From the NCBI GenBank assembly GCA_013203665.1, contig JABMPU010000035.1:113-64112 (forward strand): 64,000 bases of DNA, read 5' to 3'. A program made the position numbers and the translations under genes. The DNA comes from Armatimonadota bacterium (GTDB lineage Bacteria > Cloacimonadota > Cloacimonadia > Cloacimonadales > TCS61). Positions 1,223 through 8,007 of this stretch are shown here, piece by piece. Positions within the stretch are counted from its first letter, which is position 1. Every line of letters starts with the position of its first letter. Below the pieces are notes generated by a model. That model had not been told where the DNA came from and did not search any database. It worked only from the letters and a program-made list of their open reading frames with translations.

Positions 1223-2518
1223 ATGCCACGGCTAAGAGAAAAAATCAGAAGCAGAATTCCAAAAATTCGAGCTCTGATTAAGGACGAAATTTTAAATAAG
1301 CATGCGGGTGAAACCGTCGGAAATGTTACTGTAAAACAGGTTTATGGTGGTATGAGAGGAGTAATCGGCTTAGTGTGTAATTCTTCATATGTAGATCCAT
1401 ATAAGGGTTTACACATTAGAGGAATTCCTCTTGATGAATTAACCGAAACAATACCGGAAGAAATTTTTTACCTACTTTGCACTGGCGAAATTCCTGTAAA
1501 AGAGGATTTGGAAAGATTGCAGGAAGAACTCAAATTACGCGCTGAAGTACCTGAATATGTTTGGGACGTACTTCGCACACTGCCAAAAGATACACATCCA
1601 ATGACTATGTTCAGCATTGCTATTATGGCAATGGAAGGCGAATCCATCTTTAAAGAAAAATATGCTGCTGGAATGAGAAAATCAGATTACTGGGAAGCTA
1701 CTTTAGACGATTCTTTAGAAATTATAGCAAAGTTACCATCAATCGCTGCCGGTATTTACAGGATAAGATACTCCATGGGAGATCTTATACCTTATGATAA
1801 ATCTCTGGACTGGGGCGGTAATTATGCAAAAATGCTTGGCGTTCCCGATCCTAAAGGAGAATTCGCAAAACTGGTAAGACTGTACCTGGTTCTTCATTGC
1901 GACCATGAAGGCGGCAATGTGAGTGCATTTACATCTCGAGTTGTAAATTCCGCACTTTCAAATCTTTATTATGCTGTTTCTGCCGGTTTGAATGGACTTG
2001 CAGGACCTTTGCACGGATTGGCAAATCAAGAATGTTTGAAATTTGTTTTATCGATTCAGGAAAAATTTGATAAAGCTCCCTCCAAAAAAGAACTGGTAGA
2101 TTTTGTATTATCAACCTTAAAAGTTGGTAAAGTTGTTCCCGGATATGGTCATGCAGTTTTGAGGGCAACTGACCCGAGATTTACAGCATTTTATAAGTTT
2201 GGTGAAAAGTATTGTGCTAAAGAAGAAACTTTCCTAATTGTGAAGAGACTCTTTGAAGTAGTTCCGGATATTTTGAAGGAATATGGCGGAGGAAAAATCG
2301 CTGATCCATATCCAAATGTTGATGCAATTTCAGGCTCGCTTCTGTTCAAATATGGATTAACCATGTTCGATTATTATACAGTTATGTTCGGTGTTTCCAG
2401 GGTTCTTGGATTCTGTGCCCAGGCAATAATGGCACGTGGGCTTCAAGCTCCAATTATCAGACCGAAAAGTGTAACAAATGAGTGGATATTCGATAAATTA
2501 GGAATTAAGAAAAAATAA
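1223..2518 (+). CDS. gltA: Citrate synthase
   Basis: 431 aa with the citrate synthase signatures LVLHCDHEGGNVSAFT and PGYGHAVLRATDPR. A strong RBS (agggagg) lies 7 nt upstream of the ATG. Confidence 0.95.
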   Translation: MPRLREKIRSRIPKIRALIKDEILNKHAGETVGNVTVKQVYGGMRGVIGLVCNSSYVDPYKGLHIRGIPLDELTETIPEEIFYLLCTGEIPVKEDLERLQEELKLRAEVPEYVWDVLRTLPKDTHPMTMFSIAIMAMEGESIFKEKYAAGMRKSDYWEATLDDSLEIIAKLPSIAAGIYRIRYSMGDLIPYDKSLDWGGNYAKMLGVPDPKGEFAKLVRLYLVLHCDHEGGNVSAFTSRVVNSALSNLYYAVSAGLNGLAGPLHGLANQECLKFVLSIQEKFDKAPSKKELVDFVLSTLKVGKVVPGYGHAVLRATDPRFTAFYKFGEKYCAKEETFLIVKRLFEVVPDILKEYGGGKIADPYPNVDAISGSLLFKYGLTMFDYYTVMFGVSRVLGFCAQAIMARGLQAPIIRPKSVTNEWIFDKLGIKKK

Positions 2519-2790: not shown

Positions 2791-4758
2791 ATGGGTCTTA
2801 ACATAGTTCAAAAGATAATAAAATCTCATCTTATCGAAGGAGAGATGAATGCCGGAGAATTAGTCGGCATCAAAATTGATCAGACATTAACTCAGGATGC
2901 CACAGGAACAATGGCTTACCTTGAATTCGAAGCAATGGAAATTCCTGAAACAAAATCAGAACTTTCCGTGAGTTATGTTGACCATAATACCAGCCAGATG
3001 GGATTTGAAAATGCTGATGACCACAAATATCTGCAAACAATAGCAGAAAAATTTGGATTACATTATTCCAGAGCAGGAAATGGAATTTGTCATCAGGTTC
3101 ATCTGGAAAGATTTGGGATTCCGGGGAAGACATTACTGGGTTCAGACAGTCATACTCCAACCGGAGGAGGAATGGGAATGATGGCTATTGGCTCCGGTGG
3201 TCTGGATGTTGCCAGAGCTATTGCAGGATTTCTTTTTTACATTACTTTTCCCAAAGTTCTGAAAATAAATTTAACCGGTAAATTACCTGCCTGGGTTTCT
3301 GCGAAAGATATAATTTTGTATGTTTTGGAACTTCTTACAACTAAAGGAAATGTAGGTTGGATGATTGAATATGGTGGTTCCAGTGTAAAAACATTAGGTT
3401 TACCGGAACGAGCAACAATAACAAATATGGGTGCTGAGCTGGGAGTAACTACTTCGATCTTTCCCAGTGATGAGATAACTTTATCATTTCTTAAAGCGCA
3501 AGATAGAGAGGATAGTTGGAAGGAACTGAAGGCAGATGACGATGCAAAATACGACAGAATTATTGATATCGATCTTTCTACCCTTGAACCTAGAGTTGCC
3601 ACACCGCACAGCCCGGGAAACATTAAACTGGTAAGCGAATTATCTGGAATGAAGGTTGACCAAGTTTGCATTGGGAGTTGTACAAATTCATCATTTAAAG
3701 ATTTAATGACAGTGGCAGAGATGCTCAAAGGAAAAAAACTACCTACTGGTATGAGTCTTGTAATTGCTCCCGGCTCAAAACAGGTTTTGGAAATGATAAC
3801 TGAAAATGGAGCTTTATCTGATATGATTGCATTTGGTGCGAGGATAATGGAATCTGCCTGTGGATTTTGCATCGGAAATGGTCAGGCTCCTGCAACAGAT
3901 GCTGTTTCTGTTCGAACTAATAATCGTAATTTCAAAGGACGCTCCGGAACCGAATCTGCAGGCATTTATCTGGTTAGCCCGGAAACAGCAGTAGCTTGTG
4001 CATTAACAGGTGTAATGACCGATCCCAGAGATCTTGGAATGAAACCTCCGGAAATCATATTGCCCGAAAAATTCAAAATTGATGATAGTATGATAATTTT
4101 TCCATCAAAAGAGAAAAAGGAAATTAAGATTTATCGTGGACCAAATATCGGAAACCCTCCCACAAATGAATCTCTTGTTGATAAACTTTTGGGAGAAGTA
4201 ACTTTAAAGGTTGAAGATAAAATAACGACCGACCACATAATGCCTGCTGGAATCAGGTTAAAATATCGCTCAAATATTCCCAAATATTCCGAATTTGTTT
4301 TTGAACCTGTTGACACAACATTTCCAGCAAGATGCCTTTCCAACAAAGAAAATGAAAAAGCAAATATCATTGTGGTTGGTTTAAGTTACGGTCAGGGTTC
4401 ATCCCGGGAACACGCTGCGATTTGTCCTTCATTTTTGGGCGTGAGGGCAGTTATTGCAAAATCCATTGAAAGAATTCACTGGGCAAACCTGGTAAACTTT
4501 GGCATTATTCCCATGATCTTTGCAGATGAAGAAGATTTTGAAAAAATCGAGCAAAATGATGAATTAGAGATGACTGGCTTAATTCAAGCTATCCGAAACA
4601 AAAGCAGTTACATCATAAAAAACAAAACAAAGAATTACGAATTTGAAGTGAAATTGGAACTGAGCTTCAGAGAGCGAGAAATATTAATCGCAGGTGGAGT
4701 TCTAAATATAATCAAAAATAAAGTCGAAGTAAAAAAAAAGAGGAGGATTAATTTATGA
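2791..4758 (+). CDS. acn: Aconitate hydratase (short, roughly 650-aa aconitase-family form)
   Basis: Aconitase motifs are present: IDQTLTQDATG, GSDSHTPTGG, Fe-S ligand cysteines in CIGSCTNSS and CGFCIGNG, and NRNFKGRSG. The swivel domain reads GLSYGQGSSREHAA. Confidence 0.9.
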   Translation: MGLNIVQKIIKSHLIEGEMNAGELVGIKIDQTLTQDATGTMAYLEFEAMEIPETKSELSVSYVDHNTSQMGFENADDHKYLQTIAEKFGLHYSRAGNGICHQVHLERFGIPGKTLLGSDSHTPTGGGMGMMAIGSGGLDVARAIAGFLFYITFPKVLKINLTGKLPAWVSAKDIILYVLELLTTKGNVGWMIEYGGSSVKTLGLPERATITNMGAELGVTTSIFPSDEITLSFLKAQDREDSWKELKADDDAKYDRIIDIDLSTLEPRVATPHSPGNIKLVSELSGMKVDQVCIGSCTNSSFKDLMTVAEMLKGKKLPTGMSLVIAPGSKQVLEMITENGALSDMIAFGARIMESACGFCIGNGQAPATDAVSVRTNNRNFKGRSGTESAGIYLVSPETAVACALTGVMTDPRDLGMKPPEIILPEKFKIDDSMIIFPSKEKKEIKIYRGPNIGNPPTNESLVDKLLGEVTLKVEDKITTDHIMPAGIRLKYRSNIPKYSEFVFEPVDTTFPARCLSNKENEKANIIVVGLSYGQGSSREHAAICPSFLGVRAVIAKSIERIHWANLVNFGIIPMIFADEEDFEKIEQNDELEMTGLIQAIRNKSSYIIKNKTKNYEFEVKLELSFREREILIAGGVLNIIKNKVEVKKKRRINL

Positions 4759-5816
4759 AAAAGATTTTATTGGTTTTATTAGGCGTATTTCTGGTGGGGC
4801 AAGTATTATCTGCAGTAGATTTTTATGGTAATGCCAGAATTGGGTATTGGTATGATATGCAGGATGAGGACATTACAGGTAGTGAAGCTAGAACTGTTAT
4901 GCATTATGATCTGTTTGGCACCAGCAGGTTTGGAGCTAATTTTAAGGGTGAAGCTTACACAGGAAAGGTGGAATTTTCTCTTTCCGGTGCAGGAGCGAAA
5001 CTAAGACAAATCTGGGGTGAATATGATTTTGGTAATTTGAAAATTTTAATTGGTCAGTATTACACAGGTTTCTTTGATCTTCCTAACCAAGCAACTTCCA
5101 TTATCTCCGGAAGTGAAAACCTGATGATAGGTTATGGTTTGATGTATGATTCACGCCATCCGATGATAAAATTATCCTTAGAAAATGGAATGTATATAAT
5201 TTTTATGGAACCAAAATTAATTGATCCGGCTTCAGCAGGTGGTGTAGATGCATTATTTCCAAAGATAAATTTTGGTTGCAGATTGAGCATGGGAAACCTA
5301 ATGATTCATCCAACCTTTGGTATAAATATGTCACAATATAATGAAGACTTCGCTGATGGAGGAATCGATGAATCAATTCTTGCATATGTTACTGCAGTGT
5401 CCACAAAGTATTGCGCAGATAAATTTAATATTCTGGCTCAGATCAGTTATGGTCAGAACGTCGCTGATTATGGCATGCTAACATCAGCAACAGTGAGTAA
5501 TGCAATCTGGATTAACTCAGAAGTTGAAAACGCCACCTCGATGGGCGGTTATTTTGAATTCACCTACAAACTTTGTCCTACTAAAAATATAGCTGCTGGT
5601 TTTGGATATTTTAGTGGAGACCGCGAAGATCTCGATGATCCTGACACAGCCTGGACTGCTTATCTTCAATCTAAGATTAATCTACATAATCATATGTTTA
5701 TTGTTCCAGAGATTGGTATGATTAACGAAGCGGAAGACGGAATGGGCAATACAGAAGGTTCTCACACCTATTTTGGCCTGAATTTTCAAGCAGATTTTGA
5801 TCTAAGTATAAAATAG
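4755..5816 (+). CDS. Putative outer-membrane beta-barrel / porin-like protein
   Basis: It has the signal peptide MKKILLVLLGVFLVGQVLSA. The body shows alternating aromatic/Gly-rich beta-strand composition (GYWYDM, YTGKVEFSL, GGYFEFTYKL, YFGLNFQADF). The ATG overlaps the acn stop (ATGA at 4755-4758), and an aggagg RBS sits at 4741-4746 inside the acn 3' end. Confidence 0.5.
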   Translation: MKKILLVLLGVFLVGQVLSAVDFYGNARIGYWYDMQDEDITGSEARTVMHYDLFGTSRFGANFKGEAYTGKVEFSLSGAGAKLRQIWGEYDFGNLKILIGQYYTGFFDLPNQATSIISGSENLMIGYGLMYDSRHPMIKLSLENGMYIIFMEPKLIDPASAGGVDALFPKINFGCRLSMGNLMIHPTFGINMSQYNEDFADGGIDESILAYVTAVSTKYCADKFNILAQISYGQNVADYGMLTSATVSNAIWINSEVENATSMGGYFEFTYKLCPTKNIAAGFGYFSGDREDLDDPDTAWTAYLQSKINLHNHMFIVPEIGMINEAEDGMGNTEGSHTYFGLNFQADFDLSIK

Positions 5817-5877: not shown

Positions 5878-5974
5878 GGAAATGAAGTCAGGGGGTAGCC
5901 TTGTAGAAGACCGAGGGTGAGTTAGAAATCGGATTTTGCAGAACTCACTAAAGAAAAAAGATTGGGAGATAAAC

Positions 5975-7321
5975 ATGAAGTATCAAAAAATTGAAGTACC
6001 AGCAAATGGAAAAAAAATAACCTTTAAAGATGGAAAATTAAATGTTCCTGATAATCCCATAATCCCGTTTATTGAGGGTGATGGCATGGGTCCAGATATC
6101 TGGAGAGCGACCAAGAGAGTGCTGGATGCAGCTGTGAAAAAAACTTTTGCGGGTAAGAAAAAAATTATCTGGATGGAGATTCACGCAGGATTATCTGCTC
6201 TCAAAAAATATGGGAATGATGATATCTTACCGGAAGATACGCTCAATGCTATTACAGAATTTAAAGTTGCTATCAAAGGACCTCTCACAACTCCGGTTGG
6301 CGGATTTGATTATGTGTGCCTGGTTTGTGCAAAAGAGCAAAATGGAATTGACGGCAAAAGACCTGAAAAATGTGTGAAGTGCGGCTCGGAATTTGTTACC
6401 AAAAGATTTCGTTCTCTAAATGTGGGATTACGGCAGATTCTTGATTTATATGCCTGTGTACGTCCGGTAAAATGGTACAAAGGTGTTCCTTGTCCCGTGA
6501 AAAGACCTGACAAATTGGATGTGATCGTTTTTAGGGAAAACACGGAAGATGTTTATGCAGGAATAGAATTTCAAGAAGGAACAAAAGAAGCTGAAAAAAT
6601 AATCAATTTCCTAGTGGATGTGATGAAAAAAAATGTTCGCCCAGACAGCGGTATTGGCATCAAACCTATTTCTATCACCGGCACAAAAAGATTGGTCAGA
6701 AAAGCGATTAATCACGCTATCGAGCAGAACCTGCCAAGTGTTACCATCGTTCATAAAGGCAATATCATGAAATTTACTGAAGGTGCATTCAGAGATTGGG
6801 GCTATGAACTTGCCAAAGAGGAATACAGGGAATATATCGTGACTGAGCAGGAACTATGGGATGAATTTAACGGTAAAATGCCGGAAGGTAAAATTCTCAT
6901 TAAAGATAGAATTGCAGACCAGACATTCCAGCAAGTATTACTTCGTCCTGATGAATATAGTGTGCTTGCCACACCAAATCTGAATGGCGATTACCTTTCC
7001 GATGCCTGTGCTGCCCAGGTGGGTGGACTCGGTCTTGCTCCCGGTGCTAATATTGGAGATGAAATTGCTCTCTTTGAAGCAACCCATGGAACTGCTCCAA
7101 AATATACAGGATTGGATAAAGTTAATCCCAGCTCTCTGATTCTTTCCGGTGTGATGATGTTCAAATATTTGGGTTGGATAGAAGCTGGCAAAATGATCGA
7201 AAATGCTTTGGAGAAAACCATTGCCCAGAAAACAGTAACTTACGATCTGGAACGTCAGATGGAAGGGGCTACAACGCTGAAAACTTCTGAATTTGGAGAA
7301 AAAATAATCGAAAACATGTAA
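5975..7321 (+). CDS. icd: NADP-dependent isocitrate dehydrogenase (Icd type) carrying a 35-aa CxxC..CxxC segment
   Basis: From [43 protein letters not shown] the protein is collinear with my recollection of E. coli Icd through to [29 protein letters not shown]. The ATG at 5975 matches the Icd N-terminus better than the TTG at 5936. Confidence 0.95.
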
Positions 7322-7335
7322 ATGAGGGTATAGCC

Positions 7336-8007
7336 ATGAAAACAGTGGAAGAATCTTTTGCTCAAGCAGAAAGCTTTAAAATGGCAGGAAAATTAAATAA
7401 CGCTGCCAAAGAATATGGACAAATTCTGAAAATCGAGCCGCAAAATATTCCTGCCCTGATGAATCTTGGAAACTTATTTTTCATGCTGGGCTTTCTGAAA
7501 AAATCTGTAGAATCATACGAAAAAGTCTTAGAATTAAAACCAAATTACAGTTACGCTCTTTACAGGCTTGGTATTTCATATTACAGGTATGCCCAATTCA
7601 AAAAGGCAATAGAGACTTTCAAACAGGTTTTAGCTCAGGATTCAGAACTTTACATGGCTTATAACTGGCTTGGATTATGCTATTATCATCTTGGCAGAGA
7701 AGATAAAAGCATCGAAGCATATTCAAAACTGTTGGAAAAAACGCCCGAACCTTTTATCGTAAATTACCACAGAGCTATTGCTTATAAATCCACCGGACAA
7801 TATGATAAAGCAATTACAGGTTTTTCAAATTTAATTAAAATTCATCCTGAGCATGTTTCTGCTCATTATCACCTGGGACTGTCTTATTTACAAAAACATG
7901 AGATTTATAAAGCAATTCAGATATTTAGAAAAGTTTTAAAACTCAATCCGAAACATAAAGGAGCTGCAGAAAAAATCGAATATCTTACTGACGTTCCATC
8001 AATATAA
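7336..8007 (+). CDS. Tetratricopeptide (TPR) repeat protein
   Basis: It contains about six consecutive 34-aa TPR-like units (A..Y..AL.L.P....A...LG..Y). It lies 14 nt downstream of icd. Confidence 0.85.
   Translation: MKTVEESFAQAESFKMAGKLNNAAKEYGQILKIEPQNIPALMNLGNLFFMLGFLKKSVESYEKVLELKPNYSYALYRLGISYYRYAQFKKAIETFKQVLAQDSELYMAYNWLGLCYYHLGREDKSIEAYSKLLEKTPEPFIVNYHRAIAYKSTGQYDKAITGFSNLIKIHPEHVSAHYHLGLSYLQKHEIYKAIQIFRKVLKLNPKHKGAAEKIEYLTDVPSI

Follow-up and report, generated by a model that had tools for sequence, protein, structure and literature searches.

What does a four-cysteine segment do in the active-site loop of an otherwise ordinary isocitrate dehydrogenase (IDH)? This question is raised by the icd gene in a stretch of 64,000 nucleotides (the window) from contig JABMPU010000035.1 of assembly GCA_013203665.1, which is titled Armatimonadota bacterium and placed by GTDB in the Cloacimonadota. 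Few enzymes of central metabolism have been studied as closely as IDH, and the loop that holds Ser113 of the Escherichia coli enzyme is a classic regulatory hot spot. Ser113 binds substrate and is the target of phosphorylation by AceK. The loop itself (Thr105-Ser113) lines the isocitrate/nicotinamide side of the cleft, and AceK must reach its Gly-rich tip. In the IDH of the window, an insert with two CxxC knuckles stands in this loop. Our results show the insert to be real. It is an ancient and widespread feature of an IDH subfamily, so far uncharacterised, and the site it occupies is functionally sensitive. As to its role, we lean towards a constitutive structural Zn(Cys)4 mini-domain, which would sit against the large domain where the active site opens and would reshape the entrance without altering the chemistry.

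The IDH of the window and the position of its insert

The icd reading frame in the list of open reading frames (ORFs) opens with a TTG at 5936 (5936..7321, + strand), and the ATG at 5975 is the likely start, giving 448 amino acids (aa), because homologues begin with MKYQK. Against hidden Markov models (HMMs), the whole protein scored 661.1 bits with TIGR00183, passing this equivalog cut-off of 567.3, and 622.2 bits with NF005425, also above the cut-off (490). Among PDB chains it is 57% identical to the IDH of Archaeoglobus fulgidus (2iv0) and 55-56% identical to E. coli IDH. Its AlphaFold 2 (AF2) model has a predicted local distance difference test score (pLDDT) of 86.6 and template modelling (TM) scores of 0.86/0.94 against 2iv0 and 0.84/0.91 against E. 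coli IDH. The residues for catalysis and for substrate and metal binding (S113, N115, R119, R129, R153, Y160, K230, D283, D307 and D311 in E. coli) are all present; the set is invariant in 50 insert-bearing sequences of type A and, but for a single R119 substitution, in 40 of type B (both types are described below). The determinants of NADP specificity K344, Y345, V351, Y391, R395 and R292 are conserved as K376, Y377, V383, Y423, R427 and R324 of the window enzyme, the first five showing little or no variation in either insert type. Judged by its sequence, the window enzyme has every testable defining feature of a type I NADP-IDH, activity and homodimeric state being predicted, and the best explanation is that it would remain an ordinary NADP-dependent oxidative decarboxylase.

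The insert was delimited by a HMMER search against all PDB chains. Residues 4-110 of the window IDH correspond to residues 3-109 of the 1ai2 chain (E. coli), and residues 145-448 to residues 111-416. The A. fulgidus enzyme 2iv0 aligns to residues 1-110 and 145-448, as do the IDHs of Bacillus subtilis and others in the PDB, while residues 111-144 were matched by no PDB chain of the IDH/isopropylmalate dehydrogenase family. Because of this split in the alignment, the 34 aa of residues 111-144 replace one residue, E. coli Gly110, with a net gain of 33 aa. The two knuckles follow the spacing CxxC-x14-CxxC, with exactly 14 residues between them, and the insert ends three residues before Ser147, the equivalent of Ser113 (Table 1). 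The original prediction, which had been made from the DNA letters alone, had described an in-frame Cys4 segment immediately before the Ser113-equivalent, with a gain of 33 aa over E. coli Icd and the rest of the enzyme collinear and well conserved. Translation and the PDB alignment bear out the segment, and the alignment to 1ai2 the gain in length; the E. coli sequence quoted in that prediction agrees with the PDB alignment, and the collinearity is upheld by the HMMER alignment, the TIGR00183 score and the intact catalytic residues. Its boundaries (6305-6409, 35 aa in place of two residues) needed a small correction: the position stands, but the last residue claimed, Phe145, corresponds to E. 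coli Ile111, so that the insert comprises 34 aa in place of Gly110.

The position of the insert brings AceK to mind, and the Ser that this enzyme phosphorylates is present, Ser147 aligning to Ser113. In the sequence alignment alone (HMMER), the AceK recognition region is nearly gapless against the archaeal IDH of A. fulgidus and shows several gaps against E. coli IDH. AceK is proteobacterial, and on these grounds regulation of the window IDH by AceK is not expected. No AceK-type kinase/phosphatase was found among the seven neighbouring ORFs of the window that were scanned with Pfam. For the insert, AceK serves only as a positional landmark.

Distribution and conservation of the insert

We call inserts of the form CxxC-x14-CxxC type A and those of the form CxxC-x9-CxxC type B. 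The original prediction had seen the insert as a graft; real and in frame it is, but not a one-off. It is present as type A in 120/120 of the best full-length homologues of the window IDH (72-93% identity), and a scan of GTDB, with one genome per species and patterns drawn from the insert alone (type A only), confirmed loci in at least 87 species, all of them metagenome-assembled genomes (MAGs) or uncultured. The 80 of these 87 loci that are listed by record title come from Elusimicrobiota (22), Cloacimonadota (12), 'Armatimonadota' (5), Neomarinimicrobiota (5), Fibrobacterota (3), KSB1 (2), Stahlbacteria (1), Caldithrix (Calditrichota; 1) and unclassified bacteria (29). Type B was recovered from a 50%-identity representative library through protein P0248, with the insert sequence G-EETHVCLHCAHQQYHxGxCDKCGKDDGVTERF-RS, and its pattern was matched in 117/119 of the best homologues of P0248. 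Its carriers, by name, are MAGs of Gemmatimonadota, Acidobacteriota/Holophagae, Eisenbacteria, Krumholzibacteriia and Myxococcota. Both types occupy the same position and have VCLxC[AS]xxQ ... CxxC ... [VM]TxRF-RS in common, with a wholly different segment between the knuckles (x14 with ...GKRP... in type A, x9 with ...YHxG... in type B). Outside the clade the insert is rare: when a query across the loop was used to collect IDH fragments, 113/117 classifiable ones had the ordinary two-residue turn. In the representative library, most insert-bearing IDHs have evidently been collapsed under insert-less representatives, and the size of the family is not readable from it. The insert thus marks out a large clade of IDHs, which comes in two insert types and extends over many mostly uncultured phyla. 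The original prediction had named as its own refutation that the segment might prove a common, already characterised feature of a known subfamily; this holds by half, the homologue and GTDB surveys showing a segment that is common in a subfamily, though not a characterised one.

Some individual records deserve comment. Locus L007 (JAUWNO010000030.1), titled Armatimonadota, has citrate synthase, aconitase, IDH and a tetratricopeptide repeat (TPR) protein 92-96% identical to those of the window, as have the Cloacimonadota loci L005 and L017. This contig is probably mis-binned or mislabelled, and entries under the taxon 'Armatimonadota' need care. In the Candidatus Stahlbacteria MAG (L018:4671-5426) the frame of the insert-bearing IDH stops after 254 aa while the locus continues, which may point to a pseudogene, to a frameshift or to faulty assembly. 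The library protein P0241 (345 aa) has the IDH segment [FI]RSLNVALRQ...FRENTEDIYAG twice in tandem, either an internal duplication or an assembly chimera. In two Fibrobacterota MAGs (L023 and L034), Met takes the place of the Gln after knuckle 1 (CAAEMNG) and of Leu116; among the lineages seen, no other departs from this otherwise invariant Gln.

The 335 homologous proteins contain 247 distinct inserts, and the four Cys are kept in every one (247/247), with a spacer of 14 residues in 138, of 9 in 108 and of 15 in 1. The CxxC...CxxC motif is therefore not due to chance. Over 73 type A gene pairs, the ratio of nonsynonymous to synonymous change (pN/pS) comes to 0.142 for the insert, against 0.138 for the remaining gene, and in the type A alignment the insert has a mean column identity of 80%, the alignment as a whole one of 78%. 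Purifying selection is as strong on the insert as elsewhere in the enzyme. Besides the ligands, E121, Q122, R129, P130, S138 and T142 are nearly invariant in type A. Two positions outside the insert change with it. At position 73 (E. coli Glu72), 253/255 insert-bearing sequences have Leu and 154/161 insert-less ones have Glu or Gln; at position 76 (E. coli Thr75), Leu stands in 252/255 sequences with the insert, and the residue varies in those without it. Five further candidates for co-variation (W167, C173, Q316, T378 and L425) were rejected, being not specific to the insert or covered by too few insert-less sequences.

These data bear on the simplest explanation, that the insert is a functionless passenger or an artefact of assembly or annotation. 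Surface loops do tolerate insertions, and nearly all carriers are metagenome-assembled. Yet the insert occurs in the 335 proteins of independent assemblies and in the species genomes counted above, always in frame, its pN/pS of 0.14 equals that of the catalytic core, and positions 73 and 76 co-adapt. This explanation is effectively refuted.

Predicted fold and possible roles

In the full AF2 model the insert has pLDDT values of 73-91 and strands at 113-115 and 141-143. This placement of the strands would bring the ends of the insert together, as an inserted domain requires. Modelled by itself, the insert has a pLDDT of 83. The best matches of this model in a Foldseek search of the PDB include Rpb12, the N-terminal Zn module of MCM, ribosomal zinc-ribbon proteins, the zinc module of Sir2 (Sir2Af2) and reverse gyrase, with TM scores of 0.6-0.69. 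The HMM matches of the insert, all sub-threshold, are mainly to zinc-ribbon and rubredoxin-like families, foremost the FmdB-type Zn_ribbon_8: PF09723 gave 16.8 bits (cut-off 34.4; best member E 6e-4) and TIGR02605 (CxxC_CxxC_SSSS) 14.9 bits (cut-off 31.3). Because all of these lie below the cut-offs, assignment of the insert to a named Pfam or NCBIfam family was rejected. Matches of the insert profile to C2H2 zinc-finger arrays among PDB sequences (E 2e-16) were also discarded as spurious, since 'GKRPEKCxKCGSxF' mimics the linker and half-finger 'TGEKPYxCxxCGKxF'. The zinc-ribbon-like character suggested in the original prediction holds in so far as the models give a ribbon whose nearest structural neighbours are Cys4 zinc ribbons; the matches themselves are weak. 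'Zinc-ribbon-like' is a fair description of the predicted fold class, in which the two CxxC knuckles would supply four putative ligands.

The rubredoxin-like matches raise the question of whether the four Cys bind Fe as a one-electron redox centre. Sub-threshold matches were found to NF045720 (E 0.003), to NF033497 and to rubredoxin chains (E 0.13), and knuckle 2 has the CxxCG form. However, the scores stay far below the cut-offs (17 bits against 45 for NF045720, 13 against 32 for NF033497), and the spacer of 14 or 9 residues is much shorter than that of rubredoxins, whose aromatic core is not seen in the insert. Moreover, hydride transfer to NADP by IDH requires no electron relay, and the best structural neighbours of the insert are zinc ribbons. 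We consider an Fe centre of this kind very unlikely.

The structural zinc module that we favour can be set out as follows. A zinc ribbon would have entered an ancestral type I NADP-IDH on a single occasion, within the Gly-rich tip of its 'phosphorylation loop' (T105-S113 in E. coli). The first and last strands of the insert would pair, so that the module exits and re-enters the loop at a single point. In the secondary structure of the AF2 model, strand 65-68 leads into helix 73-79, and strand 98-101 into the loop that holds the insert. If these two strands are taken as neighbours in the Rossmann-like fold, their C-terminal ends are adjacent, which points to L73 and L76 as the hydrophobic seat of the ribbon. 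The ribbon may thus dock on the large domain, at helix 73-79 with its two Leu in place of Glu72 and Thr75, and stand at the mouth of the cleft for isocitrate and the nicotinamide end of NADP. A floppy GGG turn would in this way be swapped for a rigid, metal-stapled cap, with a probable effect on the rigidity or gating of the loop. Such a cap would fix the residues equivalent to Thr105 and Ser113, and would reshape and partly shield the entrance to the active site. A single acquisition fits, provisionally, the neighbour-joining (NJ) tree computed with the insert columns masked, in which insert-bearing and insert-less sequences split in 147/200 bootstraps, type B being monophyletic in 200/200 and type A in 108/200.

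Several points weigh against this reading. The docking on L73/L76 is proposed from co-variation and fold topology only. The Foldseek matches of the insert are statistically weak (E >= 0.14), and the insert reaches the cut-off of no Pfam or NCBIfam zinc-ribbon model. Zn and Fe are not distinguishable from letters, and zinc is the metal we infer. The NJ tree took in only 8 insert-less IDHs as outgroup. Finally, the conservation of the near-invariant non-ligand residues E121 to T142 listed above exceeds what a bare metal staple would need, and could mark a functional surface.

The last point leads to the alternative of a docking module, which the original prediction had named as an interaction module. 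Here the exposed ribbon would bind the TPR protein, aconitase or citrate synthase (a metabolon), or would drive higher oligomers. Zinc ribbons often mediate protein contacts. Besides the conserved residues, gene order speaks for it: in about 18 loci, some of them from Cloacimonadota and Neomarinimicrobiota MAGs, the best tblastn match of the TPR protein lies directly 3' of icd (50-96% identity), and this protein is a possible partner of IDH. On the other hand, Elusimicrobiota, Fibrobacterota, KSB1 and type B loci lack the TPR gene beside icd, and the inter-knuckle segment differs wholly between the types, so that no common binding surface is conserved there. On these data we regard docking as unlikely.

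The other role put forward in the original prediction was that of a redox or metal switch. Thiol oxidation or zinc scarcity would free the zinc, the ribbon would unfold and shift the Ser147/Thr106 loop, and IDH would be turned off. Zn-Cys4 redox switches are known elsewhere, for example in Hsp33 and RsrA. The insert ends just before the Ser113-equivalent, the place at which enterobacteria rely on phosphorylation by AceK, its four Cys are conserved without exception, and in one Myxococcota MAG the type B enzyme is encoded in a tricarboxylic acid (TCA) cluster beside a malate synthase-isocitrate lyase fusion, that is, at the branch point between IDH and the glyoxylate shunt. None of this is direct evidence, and a purely structural site would show equal Cys conservation. 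The hosts include strict anaerobic fermenters (Cloacimonadota) as well as MAGs with a full oxidative TCA cycle, so that no single logic of oxidative stress fits; the same spread argues against any explanation specific to anaerobes. In the related loci compared, no thioredoxin-like or sensor gene is conserved beside the insert-bearing icd. A switch is accordingly improbable in our judgement. We are equally doubtful of the wider proposal that the ribbon is a regulatory device on the AceK-controlled loop, throttling IDH by reversible thiol oxidation or zinc loss or by the binding of a partner such as the TPR protein. None of our computations gives either a redox/metal switch or an interaction module an edge over a purely structural role.

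The conserved, predicted metal-binding domain in the Ser113 loop defines an unrecognised IDH subfamily, with two insert types in a dozen mostly uncultured phyla, and the insert is a useful sequence marker for the annotation and phylogeny of the groups that carry it. If it only stiffens and caps the entrance to the active site, it would be a case of lineage-specific structural zinc, as in the adenylate kinase lid. If it responded to redox state, metal or a partner, it would be a new way to regulate a branch point of the TCA cycle, and as a regulatory device it would give phyla without AceK an independent, metal-based control of isocitrate flux, including MAGs with adjoining glyoxylate-shunt genes.

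Gene neighbourhood and comparison with known systems

Table 1. Features of icd, its insert and the neighbouring genes in the window
Feature	Position	Strand	Basis and remarks
icd	5975..7321	+	448-aa type I (prokaryotic) NADP-dependent IDH; TIGR00183, NF005425, structure match
L73...L76, start of helix 73-79	6191..6202	+	Hydrophobic pair co-varying with the insert; helix from AF2 model
34-aa insert F111-R144	6305..6406	+	Zinc-ribbon-like mini-domain (predicted) within the 'phosphorylation loop'; replaces E. coli Gly110
Knuckle 1, C115-L-V-C118	6317..6328	+	Direct sequence reading; both Cys in 247/247 distinct inserts
E121-Q122, just past knuckle 1	6335..6340	+	Invariant in type A except Fibrobacterota (EM); Q122 kept in type B (QQ)
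Knuckle 2, C133-V-K-C136, then G137-S138	6371..6382	+	Sequence; insert alignment
Ser147 codon (E. coli Ser113)	6413..6415	+	Alignment to 1ai2; invariant in 50/50 type A, 40/40 type B
Citrate synthase	1223..2518	+	PF00285, E 4e-92; upstream position conserved in Cloacimonadota and Marinimicrobia loci
Aconitase	2791..4758	+	PF00330, PF00694; adjoins the IDH gene in 32/80 related loci
TPR protein, 223 aa, cytoplasmic-looking	7336..8007	+	TPR families; 15 nt 3' of icd; no obvious signal peptide

The genes for citrate synthase, aconitase and IDH form a block in the window that leads to 2-oxoglutarate. The nearest loci are those of Cloacimonadota MAGs, with 90-95% protein identity across the three enzymes. 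No neighbouring gene is common to the type A and type B loci, and conservation of the TPR gene extends to only some type A loci. Between aconitase and IDH there is an ORF of 353 aa (4755-5816, + strand) with a signal-peptide-like N-terminus, MKKILLVLLGVFLVGQVLSA, and with a 4-nt overlap between its ATG and the aconitase stop. Neither Pfam nor NCBIfam gave a match to it, nor did tblastn in any of the 80 related loci, where aconitase and IDH adjoin; it may encode a lineage-specific outer-membrane protein inserted in the TCA gene block. Further upstream, a protein of 194 aa (411-995, + strand) has an FlgD-Ig-like domain and a C-terminal sorting domain of type IX secretion (Por_Secre_tail), which is consistent with the window coming from the Fibrobacterota-Chlorobiota-Bacteroidota (FCB) group (Cloacimonadota). 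An Rfam scan of the 64-kb window gave no match. The Myxococcota cluster with a type B IDH (L082:1-13347, contig k141_479275) is a full TCA cluster that also contains aconitase, citrate synthase, 2-oxoglutarate dehydrogenase E1/E2/E3 and fumarase. Its malate synthase-isocitrate lyase fusion has 1108 aa and a weak hemerythrin match, and a divergent Iso_dh paralogue of 423 aa scores under every NCBIfam cut-off.

Variation in this loop has a place in the literature on IDH. PMC3521221 describes AceK-related IDH classes and lists the 'Phos-loop', with the ARS-like segment and the clasp, as a region in which insertions or gaps set IDH subfamilies apart; the length variation it discusses for subfamily I is that of the ARS-like region (EcIDH 239-275). 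No mention of a Cys-rich or metal-binding insert in the phosphorylation loop was found in the passages of PMC3521221 that a term search retrieved or in the other papers found. The insert is shown or described in no solved PDB structure or curated family model among those searched, and full-text literature searches, which have incomplete coverage and leave room for an account in a subscription journal, returned no description of it. The original prediction was aware of none, and our searches for a publication, a solved structure or a curated family model likewise found none.

Compared with the homodimeric type I enzymes E. coli Icd (1ai2/3icd) and A. fulgidus IDH (2iv0), the window IDH is alike in sequence (55-57% identity), in predicted fold (TM 0.84-0.94) and in its catalytic and NADP-binding residues, and differs by the Cys4 module in place of Gly110 and by Leu in place of E72 and T75. 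With Rpb12/RPABC4, the N-terminal Zn module of MCM, the ribosomal proteins L40e and S27e and FmdB-type proteins (PF09723/TIGR02605), its best neighbours in structure and in HMM searches, the insert has in common two CxxC knuckles, which may likewise lie on beta-hairpins of a small three-stranded ribbon with adjacent termini. Those Cys4 ribbons are free-standing domains, whereas the insert is internal to a metabolic enzyme and scores under every family cut-off.

Structural Cys4 zinc modules are also found within nucleotide-binding enzymes, as the Zn-ribbon module of sirtuins and the adenylate kinase lid of Gram-positive bacteria. Like the insert, these are small Cys4 modules in a loop of a Rossmann-type enzyme, near the active site and outside it, and in both cases some lineages have the module and others a metal-free loop. 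Their hosts are unrelated to IDH, and the structural role is demonstrated there and proposed here. In working principle, the Cys4 modules of sirtuins and of the Gram-positive adenylate kinase lid would be the closest analogues of the IDH insert.

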